DNA of 64,000 nt, taken from positions 140 through 64,139 of the forward strand of contig JASMKO010000019.1 of NCBI GenBank assembly GCA_030749225.1. The letters run 5' to 3'. The notes beneath the pieces are model-generated. The model worked only from the letters and a program-made list of their open reading frames with translations. It was not told the DNA's origin and searched no databases. The position numbers and the translations under genes are program-made. Of this stretch, positions 5,631-57,581 are shown piece after piece. Every line of letters begins with the position of its first letter. The stretch's first letter is position 1. Source of the DNA: Verrucomicrobiota bacterium. Its GTDB lineage: Bacteria; Verrucomicrobiota; Verrucomicrobiia; Limisphaerales; UBA1096.

Positions 5631-6439
5631 GTGTGCTCGGCAGTGGCATTTTCAAGGGTATGGCGGTAACGCTGAAAAACTTCGTCGGCTCATATTTCGA
5701 CAAGGAACGTCTGACGACCAACGAGTACGCTTGGCAGGCCAATGACAAGTTGCCGGAACGCGCCGGTGACTACCCGAAGGAGGAAGCCGAACAACTTTCC
5801 GACACCACTACGGTCACCCAATACAGCCGCAATTTCCCCATGCTGCTACACGACGCGGGTGAGCCGATGGATACTGTCCGCTGCGTGGCCTGCCAGATTT
5901 GTGAGCGCGAATGCCCGCCACAGTGTATTTACATTGAGAAGAGCACGGAAAAAAAAGAACGGTCCGGGAACAAGGCCCAGTTTTATCCCGCCACGTTCGA
6001 TATCGACGTTTCGGTCTGCATGAGCTGCCAGATTTGCGTGGAGGTCTGCCCGTTTGATGCCATTGTGATGAACAGCCAGTTTGAGTTGAGCACACCGAGT
6101 CGTTTCGGTGAACTATTGCTCCGGCGCGACGACCTGCTCAAGAGCAACGACTACTATTACAAGATTCATCCCGAAGAAGCCTCAGCCCGGGACAAGCGTA
6201 TCGCCGACGAAAAAGCGGCCAAGGAAGCCAAAAAAAAAGCTGCAGAAGCTGCCAAGAAGAAGGCCGCAGAGGCGAAATCAAAGTCTGAAGCCGAAGCCAA
6301 GGCAAAAGAAGAGGCAGAAGCAGCGTCTAAGCCGACCGAACCATCCGACACTCCCCCAGCTGAATCCACAGCAACCCCATCGACTGAACCGCCTGCCACA
6401 CCGACCACTGAACCTGAAAAGGAGGGCAGTGCCGAGTGA
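5627..6439 (+). CDS. nuoI: NADH-quinone oxidoreductase subunit I with a long low-complexity C-terminal tail
   Basis: The ATG at 5627 overlaps the nuoD stop. Two 4Fe-4S ferredoxin motifs are present ([12 protein letters not shown] and [12 protein letters not shown]). The last ~80 aa are a K/A/E-rich then P/T/E-rich tail. Confidence 0.85.
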
Positions 6440-7605
6440 CCCTGGACCTGATCAAAGACATCCTGCTGGCCACGGTCCCATTGTTGATCATCTTCCCGAC
6501 GATGTTCGCTTTGACCACCTGGGTGGAACGCAAGGCACTGGCACGCATCCAAAACCGGATCGGCCCAAACAAGGTTGGCGTGCCTTTGACTCCCTACGGA
6601 GGCAAGCTGAGTTTATTCGGGCTTGGCCAACCGGCAGCTGACGGCATCAAAATGCTTTTCAAGGAGAACATCGTTCCCACCGGCGCAGATCGACTGTTCC
6701 ACTTCCTTGCCCCGATCCTTTCTTTGATCCCCTCAATGCTGGTGCTCTGCTTTTTGCCACTCGACTTTCCATGGCTTAACGGTGAACAAAATTCGGTTAA
6801 AGCATTCATGCTTGATGGTGCGGTGATCTTTTTCTTTGCCATCACAGGGCTCAACACCTTGGCCGTGTTCATGGCTGGCTGGGCCTCTCGAAACAAATAT
6901 TCACTGCTGGGCGGCATGCGTGCCATCGCCCAGATGGTGAGTTACGAAATCCCGCTTGTCCTCTCAGCAGTTGTCGTCGTAATGATCGTGGGCAGCCTGA
7001 ATGCTGACAATATAGCCAAGGCACAGGAAGGCTGGAACTGGTTCGTTTTCCAGCCATGGGGCCTTGCGGCGTTCGTGATTTTTTTTATCGGCGCGCTCGC
7101 GGAGACAAACCGCTCACCATTCGATCTCCCGGAAGCTGAAAGCGAGATCATCGCAGGCTATTTCACAGAATACAGCGGATTCAAGTTCGCCCTGTTTTTC
7201 CTCGGCGAATACATCGCCATGTTTGCGATCAGCGGCCTCGCCGTAACGCTATTTCTCGGGGCAGGTGCCGGCCCGGGTGTGGAGTCTTTGTCTTGGCTTA
7301 AGATCTTCTGGTTTTTGACAAAGGTCTGCATTCTGATCGGGGTAATGATCTGGCTGCGCGGCACCCTTCCCCGGCTTCGTGTCGATCAACTCATGGGCTT
7401 TGCCTGGAAGTTCCTGCTGCCTCTTTCCATCCTGAACATCTTCGTGGCCGGTTTCGCGTGGCACATAAAGGATGCCAATAAAGAAACAGCCACCAGTGTG
7501 GTCGTCTGGATCGCGTCAATCATCATCCTTTACGCAGCAGCCAAGGGGCTGGATCGCGTCAATCGAGCCAAGGTAAAGCCGAGAACGTATCAGTACGGCG
7601 AATGA
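6436..7605 (+). CDS. nuoH: NADH-quinone oxidoreductase subunit H
   Basis: VERKALARIQNRIGPNKVG and ETNRSPFDLPEAESEIIAGYFTEYSG are NuoH/ND1 signatures. The GTG start overlaps the nuoI stop. Confidence 0.9.
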   Translation: MTLDLIKDILLATVPLLIIFPTMFALTTWVERKALARIQNRIGPNKVGVPLTPYGGKLSLFGLGQPAADGIKMLFKENIVPTGADRLFHFLAPILSLIPSMLVLCFLPLDFPWLNGEQNSVKAFMLDGAVIFFFAITGLNTLAVFMAGWASRNKYSLLGGMRAIAQMVSYEIPLVLSAVVVVMIVGSLNADNIAKAQEGWNWFVFQPWGLAAFVIFFIGALAETNRSPFDLPEAESEIIAGYFTEYSGFKFALFFLGEYIAMFAISGLAVTLFLGAGAGPGVESLSWLKIFWFLTKVCILIGVMIWLRGTLPRLRVDQLMGFAWKFLLPLSILNIFVAGFAWHIKDANKETATSVVVWIASIIILYAAAKGLDRVNRAKVKPRTYQYGE

Positions 7606-31156: not shown

Positions 31157-33457
31157 TCAAAACTGTGATTCAATGCCAAACAGTAACTGCTGAGGCATCC
31201 CAGGGCGTGCCCCCTGGGGCAACCGACCCACAACATACTCTTCATCAAACACATTATGCGCGGTTGCAAACAGATTGGTATTATCTGTAACCGAGTAATG
31301 AAGCGAGAAATCAGATACAAAATAGCTTGGCACCTCCCCATAACGTGAATCGTATTTGCCAGCATAGTTAAACGGGCCGCCTTCGTTAAATCCTGATGCA
31401 TAAGATTCATCGATATATGTACCGTCCAATGCGAGACGGAATTTACCAATTCCAAGGCCAATTCCAACATGGAGTTGAAATTCTGGTATGTATGGAACTG
31501 TGTTACCGTCCTTCGCACCACTGAAAATGCTTTCGCCATCGGCAGAACTTGCACCACTATCAAACTCAGCCTCGGTCCATGTGATACCGACGGTCACCGG
31601 TAAACTGTAATTCGCTCCATTGGCAGCACCGAAGTCATAGCCTGCCTGCAGTTCCAAACCGACCGCGGTAATCTCTCCGTCGTTCGGGCCATTATCGACA
31701 ACAACCGTTTCTCCAACTTCAAACTCCTCAAAACCGGTACCCAGATTGTCCGGCACAATAAAGTCTTCCAGATCCGAGTAGAACAAGGCACCCGTTGCTA
31801 CAAAAGCCTCATCTTGGTAGCGAAATCCTAACTCGTAGCTGTTAGAACTTTCTTCATCAAGAGACTCTCCACTACGAATATATGAACGTGGACCAGGCAA
31901 TGATGCCCCATGATACACCCCGCCAAAAAGATTCAAACCTTCGTAAACATCGCAGGAAAGGCCCAACCCTCCTGTGACAACATCTATGTCCCCAGAACCT
32001 TTTGCAGGTGATTTATCTGATGTACGCGTGTTCTGGTCATATGAGAAATCCAAAAACTCATAGCGAATACCTGGTATCACAGATAGTTTATCATTAATGG
32101 CAACACGATCCTCGAGATATAAGGACCAAGCGTCTGTTTCTTGATGACGATCGCCCGCTGCTCCACTCGGAGCATCCGGACCGGGCGATGACCAACCGCC
32201 TAATTCACCTTGATCATATTTATGATACCATTGGTAGCGGTCAATATCGTCATTATGGAAACGAACGCCTAATTGAATTTCATTCTCCAAAGAACCAAGC
32301 TCCAAATCATAATTCAAAATGGATTCAATGCCTTGTGCTGAATAATCTCGATTATTGGCTTTGAGCCTTATGAATCCAGCACTCTCGCCTTTGATTACAC
32401 TTAGGTAATCATTATTATTCCAAACTTTATATGCGCTTTTCCCAGCTTTCCCATCGGCCAAAGTGCCAACCTTATCCAACTTGAACCAGTTACGGTGGAA
32501 CTTGGTGAAGTAAGCAGTGGTTTTCAATGAAGCGTTGCTTCCCAGTTCAACAAAGTGACGCAGATACCCACGGGAAGCATAGGTGTTAATCATATCGTTA
32601 CGGGTGGCAGCATAGCGGGAATATGGGTTAGCCTTAAAATCTTCATCGGTTATACCCAGATAAGTTTCGTTGGCATCAAAATCAGTACTCCCCAGTTTCA
32701 ATTCAAATGATTGATAGTTTGAAGTGTTGGGCTCCCATGACAATTTGAGCATTGGCTCACTGCGCGTGAAGCCTGTTTCACCATTGACTCCCTGCAATTC
32801 TTTAAAGCCTTCCGTGTTGCGGTAATATCCCTCAACAAGATATCCAACCCTCCCCAAGTCGGTGTCCTTTTTACCACCGTGATAAATGTGACCGACCATT
32901 TCATCATACTCACCATAATAAACCTTTGAGTAAGTAGTGATCTCCTCAGGTATTGGAGTTGAAAGGTAATTAATGGCACCTCCAGTGGTGTGTGGGCCGT
33001 ACTTAACCTGACTCGATCCCTTAACGACCTCCAACCCACTCATCCGCTCCAAGGTCGGGCTGTAGTATGCTGAAGGAGCCGAGTATGGAGCGGGAGCGGC
33101 AAGAATGCCATCCTCCATGATCGTGACCTTGGAACTTCGCCCCATGTCGATACCGCGCAAACTGATATTCGGGAAATTTCCATAACCATCCTCAGGGCGA
33201 ACATAAACACCGGGCACACGTCGCAATGCAGAATTGATATCACTGATCGAGTGAACTCTTAGATCGTCGATATCCAGATAGGTTGCAGAACCGGTAATTT
33301 TTTTTACACCTTCCTTGGAACCCACAATTGCACCGCTCACTAATACGGGATCCAATTCCTCGAAAGTTTCTTCTGCTGCCCCCGTGGTAACTCCGAATGA
33401 ACAAATCCCGGCTACAATTGCCGGGACTGACTTATTGGTATTGAGTTTCGTTCTCAT
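31157..33457 (-). CDS. TonB-dependent outer-membrane receptor
   Basis: There is a signal peptide, a plug domain (LDPVLVSG..., SALRRVPGVYVRPEDGYGNFPNISLRGID, LERMSGLEVVKGSSQVKYGPHTTGGAINYLS), a long beta-barrel and a terminal aromatic residue (...GIESQF). GC is clearly lower than in the neighbours. The ATG at 33457 is preferred over the TTG at 33472. Confidence 0.9.
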   Translation of the reverse strand: MRTKLNTNKSVPAIVAGICSFGVTTGAAEETFEELDPVLVSGAIVGSKEGVKKITGSATYLDIDDLRVHSISDINSALRRVPGVYVRPEDGYGNFPNISLRGIDMGRSSKVTIMEDGILAAPAPYSAPSAYYSPTLERMSGLEVVKGSSQVKYGPHTTGGAINYLSTPIPEEITTYSKVYYGEYDEMVGHIYHGGKKDTDLGRVGYLVEGYYRNTEGFKELQGVNGETGFTRSEPMLKLSWEPNTSNYQSFELKLGSTDFDANETYLGITDEDFKANPYSRYAATRNDMINTYASRGYLRHFVELGSNASLKTTAYFTKFHRNWFKLDKVGTLADGKAGKSAYKVWNNNDYLSVIKGESAGFIRLKANNRDYSAQGIESILNYDLELGSLENEIQLGVRFHNDDIDRYQWYHKYDQGELGGWSSPGPDAPSGAAGDRHQETDAWSLYLEDRVAINDKLSVIPGIRYEFLDFSYDQNTRTSDKSPAKGSGDIDVVTGGLGLSCDVYEGLNLFGGVYHGASLPGPRSYIRSGESLDEESSNSYELGFRYQDEAFVATGALFYSDLEDFIVPDNLGTGFEEFEVGETVVVDNGPNDGEITAVGLELQAGYDFGAANGANYSLPVTVGITWTEAEFDSGASSADGESIFSGAKDGNTVPYIPEFQLHVGIGLGIGKFRLALDGTYIDESYASGFNEGGPFNYAGKYDSRYGEVPSYFVSDFSLHYSVTDNTNLFATAHNVFDEEYVVGRLPQGARPGMPQQLLFGIESQF

Positions 33458-33500
33458 TATTAAATCTTTCAAAAACCGCCTTTTTTGGTGGCAGCGCGTT

Positions 33501-49795: not shown

Positions 49796-52700
49796 TCAAC
49801 TCAGATCGTAGTTGAGGTTTGGGGCGAGCCACCGCTCGGCGTCAGCGAGGCTCATGCCCTTGCGCTTGGCCCACTCCTCCACCTGATCACGCTCGATTTT
49901 GCCGACGCCAAAATATTTGGCCAGCGGATGCGCGAAGTACAGGCCGCTCACCGAACTGGCCGGCCACATGGCGCAACTTTCGGTCAGGCGGATGCCGGTG
50001 TGCTTCTCAACGTCGAGTAATTTCCACAGCAAGCGCTTCTCCGTGTGATCCGGGCAAGCCGGATACCCCGCGGCGGGCCGGATGCCTCGATATTTCTCGC
50101 GAATCAACTCGTCGTTGCGCAAGGCTTCGTCGACCCCGTAGCCCCACTCACGGCGGGCGCGCATGTGTAGGCACTCGGCGAATGCCTCGGCCAGGCGATC
50201 GCCCAGCGCCTTGGCCATGATGGCGTTGTAATCGTCGTTGGCGGCCTCAAACGACTTGGCGAACGCCTCGACACCGTGCCCCGCTGTCACCGCAAACGCC
50301 CCGAGGTGATCGGTCAACCCGGTCTCCCTTGACGCAATGAAATCGGCCAGGCTGTGATTCTCTAAGGACGACTTGTCGGTTTGCTGGCGCAGAAAATGGA
50401 ACTTGGCCAAGCGCTTGGCCCGCGTGGCGTCAGTATACAATTCCACGTCGTCCCCAACCCGGTTGGCCGGGAAAAAACCGTACGCGCACTTGGCCTTGAA
50501 CAACTTTTCATCAACGATGCGGCTGAGCAATGCTTGCGCGTCGGCGAACAACTCCCGCGCCTTGTCGCCGACAGTCGCGTCGTCGAGAATCCCAGGGTAA
50601 CGCCCCCGCAACTCCCACGTGTGGAAGAACGGTGACCAGTCGATGAACTCAACCAGCATCCCCAGCGGGAAGTCATCCTCCGCACGGACGCCGGTGAATT
50701 CCGGCTGCGGGATATCCTCCACCCGCCAATCGATTTTTGTGGCGCGTTTGCGAGCCTCCGCAATGCTGAGCAGCGGCTTGGCCGCGCGTTTGCCGTGATG
50801 CTTTTCGAAAAGTTCCTCCTGCGTCGCCGTATTCGCCGCGATAAAATCATCACGGTCGGTTTCACTCAATAATTTACCGACAACGCCAACTGCGCGGGAG
50901 GCATCGAGCACGTGCAGCGTTGCCTGTCCGTAGCCGGGGGCGATCTTGACCGCAGTGTGCTCGCAACTGGTGGTCGCCCCACCGATGAGGAGCGGCTTAT
51001 CGAAGCACTCCCTCTGCATTTCCCTGGCGACATGTGCCATCTCGTCGAGCGACGGCGTGATCAATCCGCTGAGGCCAATCATGTCAACCTTTTCCTCGCG
51101 GGCGGCTTTCAATATCTTGTCGCAAGGCACCATCACGCCGAGGTCGATGACCTCGTAGTTGTTACATCGCAGCACCACACCGACGATGTTTTTACCAATG
51201 TCATGCACATCGCCCTTGACCGTAGCCATGACAATTTTTCCGCGCGAATGCACGCCGGTGTCCGCCTTTTCCACCTCCATGAACGGCTGCAGATAGGCAA
51301 CCGCCTTTTTCATGACGCGCGCACTCTTGACGACCTGAGGCAGGAACATCTTGCCCGCACCAAATAGGTCGCCGACGACGTTCATGCCATCCATCAACGG
51401 CCCCTCGATAACGTGGATCGGGCGTCCCAGTTTTTGTCGCGCCTCCTCGGTGTCGGCCTCGATGTGCTCGACGATGCCCTTGACGAGCGCGTGAGCCAGC
51501 CGTTCCCCGACCGGCCCATCGCGCCAGGCATCGGTTACCTTCTCCGACTTGCCCTGCTGCTTGACCGTCTCCGCAAACTCGACGAGCCGCTCGGTGGCAT
51601 CCGGACGGCGGTTCAGCAGGACGTCCTCGACGCGCTCGAGCAGGTCGGCCGGGATTTCCTCGTACACCTCGAGCATCCCGGCGTTGACGATGCCCATGTC
51701 CAGCCCAGCCTTGATCGCGTGGTACAGAAACGCCGAGTGCATCGCCTCGCGCACGGTGTTGTTGCCGCGAAACGAAAACGAGATGTTGCTAACCCCACCA
51801 CTGACCTTGGCCAAGGGCAGAGTCGACTTGATAATGCGCGTCGCCTCGATGAAGCCCACCGCGAAGTCGTTGTGCTCCACCATTCCGGTCGCCACGGTGA
51901 GGATGTTCGGGTCAAAAATAATGTCCTGCGGCGGGAAGCCGGCCTCTTTAGTCAGCAACTCGTAAGAGCGCGTGCAGATTTCGACACGGCGATCGGTCGT
52001 GTCCGCCTGACCCAGCTCGTCAAACGCCATCACCACCACAGCCGCGCCATAGCGGCGAATCTTCCGAGCCTTCTCGAGAAACGCTTCCTCCCCCTCCTTA
52101 AGGCTGATCGAGTTGACAATTCCCTTGCCCTGCAAGCACTTGAGCCCAGCCTCGATAACCGACCATTTTGAGCTGTCGATCATGACTGGCACGCGCGATA
52201 TGTCCGGCTCGCTGGCGATCAGGTTGAGGAACCGCGTCATCGCCGCCTCGGAGTCAAGCAGGCTCTCGTCCATGTTGACGTCGATGATTTGTGCCCCATT
52301 CTCAACCTGCTGCCAGGCGACTCCCAGCGCCTCCTCGTACTGGTCGTTCTTGATCAATTTGGCAAAGCGCGGCGAGCCGGTGACGTTTGTTCGCTCACCA
52401 ACGTTGATGAAATTAGACTCGGGCCGGACGGTCAACGCCTCCATACCGCTGAGCCGGAGCCATGGATCCGGCTTGGCCAAGCGGCGAGGTTCACAATCTG
52501 CAACCACCTCAGCGATGTGTCGGATATGTTCCGGGGTCGTGCCGCAGCAGCCGCCGACGATGTTCAACCAACCGTTGGCTGCCCAGTCGTGCAGCTGCGG
52601 CGCGAACGACTCGGGCGTCTCCGGAAAACCCGTCGGCAGCAGCGGATTCGGCATGCCAGCGTTCGGGTGCGCGCTGACATGGACCGACGCGATGCGGGAA

Positions 52701-53497
52701 AGCTCATCAATGTGCGACCGCATCTCCCTCGGGCCAAGCGCACAGTTGATCCCGACGCTGACTAGGTCGATGTTCGACACCGAGTTCCAGTACGCCTCGA
52801 CCGTCTGTCCAGAGAGCGTGCGCCCGCTCTGGTCGGTGATGGTGAAGGACAGCATCACCGGCAGCCGTTGGCCAAGCGAGTCGAACAACAACTCGAGCGC
52901 GAACAATGCCGCCCGCGAGTTGAGTGAGTCGAACACCGTCTCGACCAGCAGCAAATCCACCCCACCCTCCACCAAGCCTTTGGCCTGCTCCGTGTACGCG
53001 TCGACCAGTTGGTCATACGTCACCGCACGGAATGCCGGATCATTGACATCCGGCGAGATGGAGGCCGTGCGATTCGTCGGACCAAGCGCCCCGGCGACGA
53101 AACATTGCCGGCCTGGAACCGCCGTCATCACTTCATCGGCGGCGGATCGGGCAAGCCTCGCGTTGGCCGCATTCAACTCATGCGCCAGCGACTCCATCCC
53201 GTAATCGGCCAGTGCGATACTCGTCGAGTTGAATGTGTTCGTCTCAACGATGTCTGCCCCGGCTTCAAGATAGGTCCGGTGGATCGAGCCAATCACCTCC
53301 GGCCGCGTGATACCCAGAAGGTCGTTGTTTCCCTTCAAGTCACGATCCCAGTCTGCAAATCGTTCACCCCGAAAATCAGCCTCCTCCATTCTGTGCTGCT
53401 GGATCATCGTGCCCATCGCGCCATCGAGAATCACGATGCGCTTGGCCAAGAGATCAATCAGGGCATGATGCCTGTTACTGGACGATTTACAGCCCAC
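49796..53497 (-). CDS. metH: cobalamin-dependent methionine synthase
   Basis: The protein is 1233 aa. Domains run in order: Hcy-binding ([25 protein letters not shown]), pterin-binding, B12-binding ([12 protein letters not shown]) and AdoMet activation. The GTG start at 53497 is tentative. Confidence 0.95.
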
Positions 53498-53536
53498 AGA
53501 GCGGAAGGCTACCCGCCGCTCTTGCGCGAGTCAAAC

Positions 53537-53570
53537 AACATATCAACATATCTTGATATGTTGATATGTT
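53537..53570. promoter_or_regulatory. 34-bp perfect palindrome made of four 8-mers (AACATATC x2, TT, GATATGTT x2); candidate operator in the metH / cassette divergent region
   Basis: aacatatcaacatatc-tt-gatatgttgatatgtt has 16-bp arms, and each arm is a direct 8-bp duplication. It lies 40 nt upstream of the metH start and about 155 nt upstream of the 53726 ORF. Confidence 0.55.
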
Positions 53571-53725
53571 ACTAAAAATGGCGTAAATATGTATTATTCT
53601 GATCTAAAAAAACTCGAGGGTGCTATTCTCATCTTGCTTCCCCTAATTGTGCATTGGCAGAAATTTGTCGTTGTGGAAGTGCCATCAAAGCCGTTGGTCA
53701 AAGGGCAAGACGTTGACAGAACCGG

Positions 53726-54889
53726 TTGTCTTGGTACAATTTTCGTTGGCAACTATCAGCAACTGTGCCCAAAAAAGTCGAAATCGCGTACTCGTACGAT
53801 CCGCAGCAGGGTCATGCCGGTTTAACCGCGGAGTTGAAGATTTTGGACCCCAAGCTTATCGGCAAGGAAGCCACCTTTACGATCAAGCGTTTCGTCAAGG
53901 TGAAGGACTCCCGGCCAGTCAACAAATCGAAAGACCTTTTCAAGCACAAGTTTACCGCCTGTTCCGAGACTGAAACGATCAACATACCGCCCCATGTGCT
54001 CCATGAACGCCCTTTCGGGTACAACGGCACCAAAATCAAAATCCGCTGTTTCGGCAAACTGACCATCAACGACAGGCTTATCAGGAAGGACACTTCCACC
54101 GAGAAGGATTTGCCAACGGTTTCTCTTAAAAAACCGAAGATAACCCGAAGCACAAAAAAGCTGATCGACCCGAAGGACGTCTTTTCATTCACGAAAAACC
54201 TGATGGCGATACCCGCGCACAACAAACTGGCCACGTTATGCCTACTGGTCATCGGGGCGGTGATCATGGTGGTGAACATGATGATCGGGATCCATGATGA
54301 GTTTTCACCCAGATACGCCACCTACCTGTACTCGCAGGTCAACAGCGACGGCGAATCCTCCTCGCCAATCGTTAAGGCACTGTTTGGTTGCGGCGCCATC
54401 GGCGTGGCTATCTGGCTGGCCATCAAGCGGCAGCTTCGTCAGTACATGACGTTCCGCTTCAAGCCGATCACAGGCCTGATCGATCGCGGGACTGAACGAA
54501 ATGTGAGCGACCTGATTCAAGGAATCTCACGCACAAATTTGAAAGATGTCACGCTGCGCATCGTGGCGTGCAACCTCGAAAAGGGAAAGTACGTCCGTGG
54601 CTCGGGCAGCAACCGGCGTACGGTCAGCTTCAGTGTCCCAAAACGGGGCGTCCTGCTTTACTCGAAGGATGTGAAACTCATCCCGAAAAACCAACCGGTG
54701 GAACAATACTTTCTGGATCCAGTCTCGTTCGAACCGATGTTCAAGGCGCTTTACCCGCCGAACATCGTGTCCAAGTCACACGGACTGTTCGTTTACTGGG
54801 AGGTGCAGCTGATCCACAACGAGTTTGTGGATCAGGAACTGGAGGGGGACACCACGCAATTCAAGGTCGACGATTTCTTCACGGCATGA
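53726..54889 (+). CDS. hypothetical membrane protein: beta-rich N-domain, TM hairpin, beta-rich C-domain (cassette gene A)
   Basis: The long ORF is lower in GC than its surroundings. Two hydrophobic helices are present (LATLCLLVIGAVIMVVNMMIGI and ALFGCGAIGVAIWLAI). The flanking domains have alternating beta-type patterns (IPPHVLHERPFGYNGTKIKIRCFGKLTI; SHGLFVYWEVQLIHNEF). No ATG start exists, so the start is TTG 53726 or GTG 53764. Confidence 0.6.
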   Translation: MSWYNFRWQLSATVPKKVEIAYSYDPQQGHAGLTAELKILDPKLIGKEATFTIKRFVKVKDSRPVNKSKDLFKHKFTACSETETINIPPHVLHERPFGYNGTKIKIRCFGKLTINDRLIRKDTSTEKDLPTVSLKKPKITRSTKKLIDPKDVFSFTKNLMAIPAHNKLATLCLLVIGAVIMVVNMMIGIHDEFSPRYATYLYSQVNSDGESSSPIVKALFGCGAIGVAIWLAIKRQLRQYMTFRFKPITGLIDRGTERNVSDLIQGISRTNLKDVTLRIVACNLEKGKYVRGSGSNRRTVSFSVPKRGVLLYSKDVKLIPKNQPVEQYFLDPVSFEPMFKALYPPNIVSKSHGLFVYWEVQLIHNEFVDQELEGDTTQFKVDDFFTA

Positions 54890-55527
54890 ACACGGAAACA
54901 AACCAACAACCGGTGCTCTTTGACGATACCCTCGGGCTCCGCCAGAAGGCATTCCACGATACGAGATTGATCGTGTTCACCGGAATCAGCGGTTCCGGCA
55001 AAAGCACGGCACTCAAGTTCCTGTGTGACCATCACCCCAGTTTTTCAGCCGGCTCCCGCCGTTGGCTCTGGATGACGGGATTGATTCCAGACGTGAAGCC
55101 GATTCGCGGCCACCGGCTGGTGGTGGTGGATGAACTGTGCCATCCCCGCCAGTTGCCGGTCGTGGCCAAGTTGCTGGGGCAAAACCAAACCATTGCGGTC
55201 GCTTCACATCTCCGCTCCGCTTGGTTCTGGCCCTTTCGGCTCGCCGGATTGTGCCGTTACTATTCAACCGACGGTGATTGCGGCAAGATCAGCCGTTACC
55301 TGGCCCAGTTGGGCGTCCCGCACACCGCCGGGGCTGTCGTCGAATTCTGCCGCCGCCACGGTACGAGTTATGTCGATCTGAACTGTATCCTCGAGAGGCA
55401 TCCCGGGCGAAGCCTCGACCATGCCATACACCTGTCGGGAAAGCTGGATCAGCTAACAGTGGAACACCAGAAACGGTGGCGGCCAGTCATGCCGGTGATC
55501 GATGGAATCCGGCAACCACTTGGCTAG
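54886..55527 (+). CDS. small P-loop NTPase (cassette gene B)
   Basis: The ATG at 54886 overlaps the stop of gene A (ATGA). Walker A is FTGISGSGKST and Walker B is HRLVVVDEL. No specific family is recognised. The ORF-track extension to 54568 is rejected. Confidence 0.65.
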   Translation: MNTETNQQPVLFDDTLGLRQKAFHDTRLIVFTGISGSGKSTALKFLCDHHPSFSAGSRRWLWMTGLIPDVKPIRGHRLVVVDELCHPRQLPVVAKLLGQNQTIAVASHLRSAWFWPFRLAGLCRYYSTDGDCGKISRYLAQLGVPHTAGAVVEFCRRHGTSYVDLNCILERHPGRSLDHAIHLSGKLDQLTVEHQKRWRPVMPVIDGIRQPLG

Positions 55528-55531
55528 GCGC

Positions 55532-55990
55532 CTATCGCAACGCGATCTCGATGGGCATCAGTCGGAGGGTGAAGTCGAGAGCACTTTCGAGTTCGCTGCC
55601 CAGCGATTCGAGTTGCCGCTGATACGGGGCGTTAACCATATCGTTTAGCACACGATCGGAAATCAGGCTGGCCATCTGCCCGTCGCTGTTGGCCACCATG
55701 ACGATCCACTCCGACACTTTTTGCGGGGCGCCGGCAACCACCGGCTCGGAAACCGGGGCCGGCTTGAGGGCCAAAGCCAGCGCGATGACGCCCAAGCCGC
55801 CGGCGAACACCCAGCGCCACGCCTTGGCCAAGCCGTGCGTTGAGCGGGCCTGTTTTTCGGCCTCGGCATGGACGGCGGCCATGATGCGCCGGTGGAGGAA
55901 CGGCGGAAAATCCGGCGCATCCCGCCTGGCCCCATCGACGAGGCGGGCCTCGATGCTTGGCCAAGTGCTTGGTTGTTGTTCGTCTTTCAT
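55532..55990 (-). CDS. putative anti-sigma factor (single-pass membrane protein)
   Basis: It lies immediately downstream of the ECF sigma gene. A short cytoplasmic N-domain is followed by one TM segment (AWRWVFAGGLGVIALALAL) and an extracytoplasmic tail. The ATG at 55990 is preferred over the TTG at 56017. Confidence 0.55.
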   Translation of the reverse strand: MKDEQQPSTWPSIEARLVDGARRDAPDFPPFLHRRIMAAVHAEAEKQARSTHGLAKAWRWVFAGGLGVIALALALKPAPVSEPVVAGAPQKVSEWIVMVANSDGQMASLISDRVLNDMVNAPYQRQLESLGSELESALDFTLRLMPIEIALR

Positions 55991-56013
55991 GGTTCGATTC
56001 GCTTGGTTATTAG

Positions 56014-56631
56014 TCAAAATCCGGTTCCTGTCGGCAATTCCTCTGCGAGTTTTCGGCGGGCGCGGTGCAGCAGCACTTTCACAGAGCCGACACTCTTATT
56101 CATTACGTCCGCGGTTTCGGCCAGGTTTCGCTCTTCGCCGTAAAAATGCCACAACGCGTTGAACTGGCTTTCAGGGAGAGACTTTCGGGCCTGGCCCCAG
56201 ATGCCCCTGGCCTTCTCGCTGGCCATCAAGTTGCTCCGTGGATTTTCGTCGACAGCCCAGTCTGCGTTCTCCGCCTCAACCGGTTGCCTGCGGCGGAAGT
56301 GGTTGATGGCCAGGCGCGAGGCGATGGTGTAAATCCAGGTCGTGAAGGCGTATTTCGGGTTGTAGCGGTGTAACTTGCGATAGGCCGTGACGAAGGTGGA
56401 TTGCAGCAAATCCTGGGCGAGATGATGGTTTCCGGTCTTCCGGAAAAGGAAGGCGAACAACCGACCCTCGAGCCGGGTCACCAGTTGCTCGAACGAATCG
56501 ATGCAGCCCCCTTTCGCAGCAATGGCCAAGGCGAGTTCCTCCTCCCGCTCCGAGTCCCGCTCCGTGTTATCGCGAGTCGGGGCAATGACACAGCTTGAAT
56601 CAGCTTGGCCCTGGGGTGGAGCCGCCATCAT
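56014..56631 (-). CDS. ECF-type RNA polymerase sigma-70 family factor
   Basis: Region 2 is FEQLVTRLEGRLFAFLFRKTGNHHLAQDLLQSTFVTAYRKLHRYNPKYAFTTWIYTIASRLAINHFRR. Region 4 is LPESQFNALWHFYGEERNLAETADVMNKSVGSVKVLLHRARRKL. The start is either ATG 56631 or TTG 56655. Confidence 0.85.
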   Translation of the reverse strand: MMAAPPQGQADSSCVIAPTRDNTERDSEREEELALAIAAKGGCIDSFEQLVTRLEGRLFAFLFRKTGNHHLAQDLLQSTFVTAYRKLHRYNPKYAFTTWIYTIASRLAINHFRRRQPVEAENADWAVDENPRSNLMASEKARGIWGQARKSLPESQFNALWHFYGEERNLAETADVMNKSVGSVKVLLHRARRKLAEELPTGTGF

Positions 56632-56651
56632 CGAAGCTGAGGCATACTGAA

Positions 56652-57581
56652 TCAAGGCTTCGGAATGTCGATGTCGAGATCCTTCAACGCGGGGTCGATC
56701 AACTCCAACAGTTTGTCCACGGCGATGGAAAAATGAACGGACATCGTCACCTTATCGCGAGTGACCTTCAGACCGTTGAGGATATCCTTGATCTCCGGGT
56801 TCTCTTCCTGGCCCAATTTGGCAAAGCCAATCAGGCCGTTGACCATTGCCTCCAACTGTTGGGCAGTGTCGGCGTCGTAGGTGTCAACGACCAGGGAGAG
56901 GATCAGTTTCTCGCCCGTCTCTCCCATTACAAGCGCAGCCTGCTTGACCATTTCCTTGAAACTCTCATCGTCGATTTGCTCCTTGATCGACTCAATGTCG
57001 GCGTAAGCCGTGATGAATGCGTTCGTCGCTTTCTTGCTGATCGTCTTGAGACTGGGCGGCACCTGTTTCGCCGCTCCCTTGCCATTGACGAGGTCGATGG
57101 CATCGCCAGCCAGTTCACGGCTGGGAGCCAGCACGGCGGTGGTGGCATTGACAAAACTGACATACCCGCGCTCGTCGTCGCTTCGGTCGCCGACCCCGTG
57201 GATCTCATGTTTGCCATGCTCAGTTTTGCGATAATGCTCGTCGAGCTTCATGAACGCCAGCAGCTTGGAGTTGTCCCCCTTGTGCTTCACGACAAGAATG
57301 CCGTTATCCTCCTTCCCATTGCCGGACAGGGTGGCGCTTTGGAAAGCCGTCAGCGGATCAAATCCAACGATCTCAACCAGCGCATCAAACTTCTCCCTGC
57401 CCTCCTCCGTTCGGATTTGTTCGAGGAGGGTGGTTCCAATTTTCGATGCCCGGAAGGCGTCCAAATCCAGATGCGCCACGAACTTGGCATCATTGGAGAT
57501 GTTGCCCTTGTCGACCGCTGCCGCCTCGCTGGCAGTCAATGCCAGTGCCAAGCCAAATAATGTGAATACCGTTTTTTTCAT
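56652..57581 (-). CDS. hypothetical secreted protein, first gene of the ECF sigma operon
   Basis: The signal peptide is MKKTVFTLFGLALALTASEAAA. Coding bias is good. The stop abuts or overlaps the sigma-factor gene. No family is recognised. Confidence 0.6.
   Translation of the reverse strand: MKKTVFTLFGLALALTASEAAAVDKGNISNDAKFVAHLDLDAFRASKIGTTLLEQIRTEEGREKFDALVEIVGFDPLTAFQSATLSGNGKEDNGILVVKHKGDNSKLLAFMKLDEHYRKTEHGKHEIHGVGDRSDDERGYVSFVNATTAVLAPSRELAGDAIDLVNGKGAAKQVPPSLKTISKKATNAFITAYADIESIKEQIDDESFKEMVKQAALVMGETGEKLILSLVVDTYDADTAQQLEAMVNGLIGFAKLGQEENPEIKDILNGLKVTRDKVTMSVHFSIAVDKLLELIDPALKDLDIDIPKP

Follow-up and report, generated by a model that had tools for sequence, protein, structure and literature searches.

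Arrestins are activated by a rotation between their two lobes about a short hinge, and all members of the arrestin clan known to us are soluble. The clan exists in bacteria and archaea, where Spo0M, which is soluble and poorly understood, is the only prokaryotic family described so far (PMC2515105). A search of the full-text literature returned no paper on a 'bacterial arrestin' or a 'prokaryotic arrestin', the apparent matches being mostly to the word 'arresting', and nothing that tied arrestin-fold proteins to AAA+ partners or to phage defence. Here we describe a two-gene cassette, A-B, found in a 64,000-nucleotide stretch of DNA from a Verrucomicrobiota bacterium (contig JASMKO010000019.1), which is referred to in full as the window. 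The cassette had been picked out from the letters of the window in an earlier note, designated here the original prediction. Our analysis points to an autonomous and dispensable two-gene operon that would build a two-protein inner-membrane module.

The A-B operon and its proteins

As originally described, the cassette consisted of two open reading frames (ORFs) on the + strand between metH and a convergent operon encoding an extracytoplasmic function (ECF) sigma factor. The metH gene (49796-53497, - strand) was located on one side and the convergent operon (55532-56655, - strand), which encoded an anti-sigma factor (55532-56017), the ECF sigma factor (56014-56655) and a 314-amino acid (aa) protein, on the other. 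Gene A (53765-54889, + strand) encoded 374 aa from a GTG start codon to a TGA stop codon, its product being a putative inner-membrane protein of arrestin fold. Gene B (54886-55527, + strand) encoded 213 aa from an ATG start codon to a TAG stop codon, and its product was a putative stand-alone AAA+/STAND-like P-loop ATPase. The ATGA at 54886-54889, in which the stop codon of gene A (TGA) overlaps the start codon of gene B (ATG), was present as originally noted, as was the 213 aa length of B.

Gene A had been listed as an ORF of 387 aa without an ATG start; the ORF was real but its start and length were not correct. A near-consensus sigma-70-type promoter was identified between 53713 and 53740 on the + strand (TTGACA, a 16 nt spacer and TG-TACAAT; 11 of 12 matches). 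As this promoter overlaps the TTG at 53726, that codon was rejected as the start of gene A. An alignment of 42 sequences showed that GTG 53765, which is V14 of the 387 aa listing, aligned with Met1 of homologs of 371-380 aa, and the 374 aa frame was therefore adopted. A TTGAC(A/G)-N16/17-TATAAT sequence was also found 5′ of A in the relatives L092, L097, L100, L095 and L105, as well as in the remnant locus L109. Rfam gave no match in or around the cassette. The TAG of gene B (55525-55527) was only 4 nt from the stop codon of the convergent anti-sigma gene (55532-55534), which left no room for a terminator; the B proteins of close relatives had a further 15 aa, so that their genes would run into the end of the anti-sigma gene.

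An AlphaFold2 model of A, built on the family alignment (pLDDT 85.8, pTM 0.77), placed one beta lobe at residues 18-128 (387 aa numbering), another at residues 241-373 and, between them, two long helices (residues 164-193 and 214-240). A Foldseek search of the PDB with this model returned the arrestin clan in all of the top 50 matches (Vps26A/B/C, beta-arrestins, visual arrestin, ARRD-6 and TXNIP), with a probability of 1.0, E values of 4e-9 to 3e-6 and alignments covering both lobes. The likeness to arrestins that had been guessed at in the original prediction was thereby borne out at the level of the model. The TM-scores were just 0.22-0.31, which would follow from a lobe orientation unlike that of soluble arrestins. 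Judged by the model and the Foldseek matches, the tandem arrestin-type beta-sandwich lobes were present in A; the soluble form with a short flexible hinge was not, as the lobes were joined by two hydrophobic helices and a 25-residue loop.

The predicted N-terminal beta-sandwich lobe (residues 18-128; 53777-54109, + strand) aligned with the arrestin/Vps26 N-domain in the full-length Foldseek alignments. It was followed, in place of the arrestin hinge, by a putative transmembrane (TM) hairpin (54227-54433, + strand) composed of TM1 (residues 168-189), an outer loop (residues 190-214, 25 residues) and TM2 (residues 215-236), as assigned from hydropathy and charge. The two beta halves around a TM hairpin reported originally were thus recovered, the hydrophobic helices 168-189 and 215-236 both being found in the model. 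The predicted C-terminal beta-sandwich lobe (residues 241-373; 54446-54844, + strand) was the most conserved part of the protein and contained the stretches LRVVACNxEKGxYxRGSGSNRRTVSF, MFxALYPP, HGLxVYWEVQL and FVDQEL; 41 positions were conserved to at least 90% in B-paired and solo forms alike. Within the first of these is a hairpin tip, R291-G-S-G-S-N-R-R298 (54596-54619, + strand), which is a candidate contact site for B. The tip was retained as RGSGSNRR in 57 B-paired A proteins and was replaced by EKSGKETK in the B-less forms of the Lysobacterales.

The outer loop was of equal length in 42 of 42 aligned sequences and contained a mean of 5.1 acidic residues versus 0.6 basic residues, while the sequences flanking the hairpin were rich in K and R. 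By the positive-inside rule this distribution of charge would place both lobes in the cytoplasm. The loop carried the motif H-D-Q..P..Y-S-H-x-[DN]-S-D-G-[DE]-S-x-S-P (H190, D208), in which D191, Y202, G209 and P214 were invariant, and it was conserved in the solo A forms too. Invariant polar or small residues were also found within or at the end of TM1 and in TM2 (N184, G188, H190, D191, G221 and G223). Taken together, the model and the sequence features describe A as an integral inner-membrane protein with two cytoplasmic beta-sandwich lobes of predicted arrestin/Vps26-type fold and a TM hairpin in the position of the hinge.

This relationship was visible in structure and not in sequence profiles. 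The window protein had no Pfam match and no credible NCBIfam or PADLOC match, none of 42 A family members matched the arrestin-clan Pfam models (CL0135) at E ≤ 1, and the A family profile found nothing among PDB sequences at E ≤ 10. A search of a viral structure library returned generic beta-sandwich noise only. A similar block had been reported in both halves of A; an hhalign comparison of the N-lobe and C-lobe profiles gave a probability of <1%, so that an internal duplication was rejected and the lobes are alike only as beta-sandwiches.

The AlphaFold2 model of B (pLDDT 83.6, pTM 0.75) comprised a P-loop core of five strands and, after it, four helices. Foldseek matched it to the AAA+ modules of RFC, the clamp loader/gamma-complex, ORC and RuvB (E values of 3e-5 to 6e-4, query-normalised TM-score of approximately 0.5). 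Both nucleotide-binding motifs that had been read from the sequence were confirmed. The Walker A motif G33-I-S-G-S-G-K-S-T41 (54982-55008, + strand) had G33, S35, G36, G38 and K39 invariant in 29 diverse orthologs, and the same positions were conserved among 52 sequences. In the Walker B motif L78-V-V-V-D82-E83 (55117-55134, + strand) D82 was invariant and E83 was at least 70% conserved. The invariant residues were G33, S35, G36, G38, K39, L46, H50, D82, H108 and K134. The predicted C-terminal four-helix lid (residues 133-197; 55282-55476, + strand) aligned with the lids of clamp-loader and ORC AAA+ modules. No conserved arginine finger or sensor-2 Arg was found in B, as no Arg was invariant or at least 90% conserved among either the 29 or the 52 diverse orthologs.

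Profile searches placed B no more precisely than its P-loop. The window protein was below the cut-off of all Pfam AAA families (AAA_22, AAA_33, AAA_18, AAA_16 and others; best score 17 bits versus 27), as were its orthologs, among which the commonest weak matches were to AAA_22, AAA_33, ABC_tran, nSTAND_NTPase5 and nSTAND3. The only family above its cut-off was nSTAND3 (PF20720), which was matched by the orthologs P0136 (28.0 bits) and P0138 (30.3 bits) versus a cut-off of 27.2 bits, in each case over profile positions 10-81 of 155 only. The window protein scored 13.1 bits against the same cut-off, and 10 of 21 B family members matched nSTAND3 at E ≤ 0.1. For B, NCBIfam and PADLOC gave no more than sub-threshold P-loop matches, and its sequence similarity to solved structures was limited to the Walker A loop. 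Modelled in this way, B appears to be a soluble, minimal stand-alone AAA+/STAND-like ATPase made up of a core plus a lid and lacking a conserved arginine finger. The original statement that neither protein had a recognisable family agreed with these searches, in which Pfam, NCBIfam and PADLOC, applied to the window proteins and to every aligned family member, gave nothing beyond the P-loop of B; nor did these databases or PDB profile searches assign either protein to a known housekeeping family.

Co-inheritance, distribution and loss of the pair

The six-frame ORFs of 86 fetched loci and of the window (87 loci) were searched with profiles for A and B. A was present in 87 of 87 and B was directly downstream on the same strand in 70 of them, which came from the Verrucomicrobiota, Planctomycetota, Acidobacteriota and Proteobacteria and had housekeeping surroundings unrelated to one another; the loci without B were contig-end cuts or encoded distant A forms. 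Independent gene calls from seven lineages showed that the A and B ORFs overlapped by 4 or 11 nt, abutted or were 4 nt apart, and look-ups starting from B orthologs again found an unannotated gene of 349-370 aa upstream. The pairwise identities of A and B were correlated (r = 0.88, 1035 pairs). The pair is translationally coupled, and its genes have been inherited together and have diverged together across phyla. The possibility left in the original prediction that the two genes never co-occur elsewhere was answered by 69 further loci, spread over several phyla, in which the genes were neighbours on one strand with overlapping ends.

All 228 A homologs retrieved were labelled 'hypothetical'. 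The A family accounted for 296 of the 50%-identity clusters in a set of 1.84 billion representatives, with lengths of 360-395 aa in nearly every case; the B family had 43 clusters, each of a stand-alone protein (112-250 aa). When one genome from each of 185,579 species was scanned by pattern, 85 relatives were found. These were from the Verrucomicrobiota (Opitutales, Verrucomicrobiales and Akkermansiaceae), Planctomycetota, Thermoanaerobaculia/Acidobacteriota and Gamma-, Alpha- and Betaproteobacteria, together with a few bins labelled Patescibacteria.

The flanks of the pair varied between lineages and were stable within each. In the clade of the window they were metH and the ECF operon; an Opitutales clade had DLH-125 aa-A-B-rarA, several Planctomycetota and Verrucomicrobiales had PSD1/DUF1501, and the B-less A form of the Lysobacterales was set in the conserved housekeeping order ftsY-mutY-(folA)-A-tRNA-Asn. 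In the last group (L060, L062, L068, L074, L079 and L086) A was located at approximately 6000-7100 and tRNA-Asn at approximately 7100-7200, with a RelB antitoxin gene after the tRNA in L060 and L062. All-against-all clustering of the neighbours found no conserved third gene, only clade-specific synteny. A general link to the ECF sigma operon was rejected, as this operon was present only in the clade of the window and, coincidentally, in L089/L090. The planctomycete-type locus L089 (6728-13885) encoded a MetE-like Meth_synt_2 gene upstream of the pair and a convergent kinase and an ECF sigma factor downstream; its resemblance to the metH/ECF flanks of the window (49796-56655) is probably a coincidence, as other lineages had no such flanks.

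Several individual loci differed from the common layout. An Opitutia metagenome-assembled genome (L041, 909-4163) contained a tandem duplication in the order A, B fragment, second A and full B, and an apparent A-B fusion in L071 was an artefact of masked N runs. A eukaryotic-type Ser/Thr kinase gene directly adjoined A or A-B in several unrelated lineages, among them Gammaproteobacteria, and was usually convergent (for example 10727-11872 in L115 and 11707-13296 in L089). An M48 (HtpX-like) gene was located directly upstream of A in the unrelated lineages L088 (8491-9780, with LemA before it) and L069 (4850-5761).

The clade-specific anti-sigma protein of the window was used as bait in metagenome contigs, which revealed 24 loci with the same metH ... 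anti-sigma-ECF synteny. The cassette was intact in L092, L094, L095, L097, L100, L105 and L107, and four short contigs carried part of B. In L101 and L114 A was frameshifted into three pieces and B was deleted. Only an N-terminal stub of A was left in L109 and L110 (approximately 90 residues) and in L099 (approximately 80 residues, the contig ending just beyond), and only the last 66 residues of B were left in L102. The cassette was cleanly absent from L103, L104, L106, L108 and L111, in which 135-220 bp separated metH from the anti-sigma gene. As intact, pseudogenised, remnant and absent states were found between identical flanks, the cassette is dispensable, accessory and repeatedly lost. 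A universally conserved core pair, an outcome that the original prediction had named as fatal to it, is not what was found, given the rarity of the family (85 in 185,579 species genomes) and its loss or decay in relatives sharing the flanks.

The base composition of the cassette did not mark it as foreign. Gene A had a GC content of 0.525, which was the 14th percentile of equal-sized windows (window mean 0.571), and GC at third codon positions (GC3) was 0.715 in gene A, 0.70 in gene B, 0.71-0.75 in the ECF genes and 0.77 in metH. The GC deficit of gene A was at codon positions 1 and 2 and is therefore attributed to amino acid composition, plus an AT-rich promoter region, and not to foreign DNA. 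Foreign origin by composition was rejected, as GC3 equalled that of the neighbours, and the AT-richness taken originally as a sign carries no meaning. The lowest-GC stretch of the window was elsewhere (31157-33472, approximately 0.43 versus a mean of 0.57); it encoded a 771-aa protein which by eye was TonB-dependent outer-membrane receptor-like and which adjoined a 1645-aa secreted protein.

The 8-mer palindrome TTGGCCAA is a strongly over-represented genomic word, with 41 copies in 64 kb versus 1.9 expected from dinucleotide-preserving shuffles (for example at 53442-53449 and 55824-55831). CTTGGCCAAG was present in 27 copies and GCTTGGCCAAGC in 9 copies in the window. The cassette had been described as free of the abundant palindrome, and the TTGGCCAA-free gap (53449-55824, 2.4 kb) was real but not significant; 10 of 40 inter-copy gaps were at least as long, and a gap of this kind was rejected as a sign of insertion. 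A perfect inverted repeat of 34 bp with 16-bp arms, AACATATCAACATATC-TT-GATATGTTGATATGTT, was located at 53537-53570, approximately 40 bp upstream of metH, and was kept in all relatives. It was rejected as an operator of the cassette and is probably an operator for metH regulation, because it was also conserved upstream of metH where the cassette was lacking.

Possible functions of the pair

The explanation that we favour, tentatively and at somewhat less than even chances, is that the pair works as a transmembrane switch coupled to an ATPase and serves an accessory role in the envelope or in stress responses. A and B would form a stoichiometric complex in which the membrane hairpin is the hinge of a clamp of the arrestin kind. 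Divalent-cation occupancy or an envelope perturbation, acting at the outer loop or within the membrane, would change how the lobes are oriented to each other, in analogy to the inter-domain twist of arrestins, since a movement of TM1 against TM2 would be passed directly to the position of the two cytoplasmic lobes. B would read or reset the state of the lobes through its ATP cycle. The RGSGSNRR tip of A would be the likely contact for B and could act as an arginine finger in trans; it is the best candidate for this contact because B has no arginine finger of its own and the tip is retained only in B-paired A proteins, and we infer its role from this pattern. The biological role would then be an accessory function in the envelope or in the stress response and neither a core process nor a classical defence-island system. 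The wider claim that the pair represents an unrecognised class of transmembrane machine, a membrane-built arrestin fold with its hinge as TM sensor that is operated by a dedicated minimal AAA+/STAND ATPase, is a more doubtful one.

Several observations weigh against such a switch. A is encoded without B in the Lysobacterales, and A can therefore presumably act alone or with an unlinked partner. The match of A to arrestins is at the level of predicted fold and topology only, given the TM-scores of 0.22-0.31. The contact between A and B, the hinge mechanism and the binding of cations are what we infer from anatomy, and the likeness of the D-x-D-G-D core of the loop ([DN]SDG[DE]SxSP) to the start of an EF-hand Ca-binding loop is a putative one. 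Finally, a conflict system would account just as well for the patchy distribution and the repeated losses.

A conflict system was one reading of the original prediction, in which an undescribed, compact, translationally coupled accessory membrane module was seen as having the look of a phage-defence or abortive-infection system, or else of another novel two-component machine; the module stands, whereas its specific use in defence found no support in its context. In a defence system B would act as a sensor or switch of minimal STAND type and would, on infection, license A, whose hairpins would oligomerise and depolarise or permeabilise the membrane. This would agree with the compact, coupled layout of an NTPase and a membrane protein, with the rare and patchy spread over at least five phyla, with the presence, absence and pseudogenisation among close relatives, with the tandem duplication at one locus (L041) and with the two B orthologs marginally above the cut-off (28.0 and 30.3 versus 27.2 bits) of nSTAND3, which is the NTPase module of Avs5. 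The defence-island check proposed originally was made on a sample of neighbours within two genes of the pair in 35 lineage-dereplicated loci (127 proteins) and on nine annotated contexts of 6-10 kb to either side, and showed no enrichment beside defence genes or mobile elements. The top 25 Pfam families of the 127 flanking proteins included no restriction-modification, toxin-antitoxin, integrase or transposase family; recurrent families were DUF1501, Pkinase, MutY domains, peptidase S9, aminotransferases and MgsA. PADLOC matches in the flanks were generic, being kinase and MutY-like proteins that cross-matched PD-T4-6, REase_II and similar models, and the nine annotated contexts contained only metabolic or housekeeping genes. 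No PADLOC-DB v2.0.0 model matched the pair itself (best E 0.03 for A and 0.012 for B, P-loop only), and no copy was found on phages, plasmids or viral contigs in IMG/VR, PLSDB and INPHARED. The host-like codon usage, the fixed position within each clade and the uniform, strongly conserved architecture with no variable sensor domain also argue against defence, which is no longer the leading reading for the pair and which we regard as unlikely.

An arrestin-type adaptor is one step further from probable. Here A would bind a transporter or receptor by its cytoplasmic tail, which may be phosphorylated, and B, as the ATPase for the release or recycling of A, would regulate how active this client is or how fast it turns over. 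The arrestin-clan fold generally binds cytoplasmic faces and tails, and the Foldseek matches included arrestin-GPCR, ARRD-6-TMC-1, Vps26-cargo and TXNIP structures. Eukaryotic-type Ser/Thr kinases were convergent and directly adjacent in unrelated lineages (L015/L089/L090, L076/L115/L116, L077, L085 and L039) and an M48 (HtpX-like) membrane protease was upstream of A in two lineages. The kinase association is nevertheless weak, at 3 of 127 sampled neighbours and with kinases being abundant in Planctomycetota, and B does not have the pore-loop or arginine-finger features of remodelling AAA+ motors. Moreover, no third gene was conserved with the pair, and a client would therefore have to be universal or lineage-specific. 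Less probable again is an ATPase-regulated ion-conducting or ion-sensing assembly in which the hairpins of several A subunits form a cation path gated by the lobes and B, with N184, G188, H190, D191 and the acidic loop as its filter. The invariant residues N184, G188, H190, D191, G221 and G223 in or near the TM helices and the acidic outer loop of fixed length would suit such a path, and a precedent is the defence protein of the Tmn preprint, a membrane P-loop NTPase that reportedly exports Mg2+. Against this, each subunit has just two TM helices, the path is deduced purely from residue conservation, and no similarity to transporter families was found by sequence or fold. That A and B are functionally unconnected, being either unrelated genes that happen to adjoin or spurious ORFs, has practically no likelihood left: the missing family annotation of both would allow it, but adjacency, strand and overlap were conserved in 70 of 87 loci from several phyla with unrelated flanks, A and B diverged in correlation, both fold models were confident and the two genes were lost together in relatives. 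This reading is already refuted by the co-occurrence data.

Comparison with known systems

Whichever function applies, the pair adds two new protein families that are unannotated in current databases; A contributes approximately 300 clusters and B at least 43. It also offers a tractable bacterial system for the action of the arrestin fold at membranes and for the coupling of inter-lobe movement to a signal, and it bears on the origin of the arrestin/Vps26 adaptors. Should the pair be a transmembrane machine as proposed above, A would be the first protein of arrestin fold in prokaryotes for which both a partner and a membrane topology are defined, and the logic of an arrestin at the membrane with a nucleotide switch would exist outside eukaryotes, notably in Planctomycetes-Verrucomicrobia-Chlamydiae (PVC) bacteria. 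Should it be a defence system, it would encode a new type of effector that island-based discovery would have overlooked, because it is located outside defence islands.

The cassette shares with two-gene abortive-infection and defence systems of an NTPase and a membrane effector the form of a small operon for a P-loop NTPase (B) and a 2-TM protein (A) that is accessory, patchy and often lost. It differs from them in matching no catalogued model, in showing no enrichment of defence or mobile genes in the neighbourhoods sampled and no copies on phages or plasmids, and in its strongly conserved sequences and uniform architecture. For several B orthologs the best-scoring Pfam family was nSTAND3, the NTPase of the Avs5 anti-phage proteins, which are bacterial immune receptors, although the match covered only the Walker A to Walker B region of the profile. 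STAND proteins are large multidomain receptors, whereas B has no winged-helix, repeat-sensor or effector domains. With the clamp-loader, ORC-Cdc6 and RuvB AAA+ proteins B shares the predicted P-loop alpha/beta core, the Walker A and B motifs, a polar residue (H108) after strand 4 and the helical lid. Unlike these proteins it is a stand-alone protein of 190-250 aa with no further domains, and it has no invariant Arg and so no canonical arginine finger or sensor 2.

The closest relationship of A was to the arrestin clan (visual and beta-arrestins, the alpha-arrestins, TXNIP and ARRD, Vps26 and Spo0M), with which it shares two consecutive predicted beta-sandwich lobes of the same topology, placed at the cytoplasmic face of the membrane where arrestins act. 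A differs from the clan in that its membership is undetectable by sequence profiles and the global TM-scores are low (0.22-0.31), in that its hinge is a putative TM hairpin with an extracytoplasmic loop, which would make it an integral membrane protein, and in that it is encoded with a dedicated ATPase. The folds of A and B thus belong to known superfamilies, while no description exists of the membrane-integrated arrestin architecture, of its pairing with a minimal ATPase or of either sequence family.

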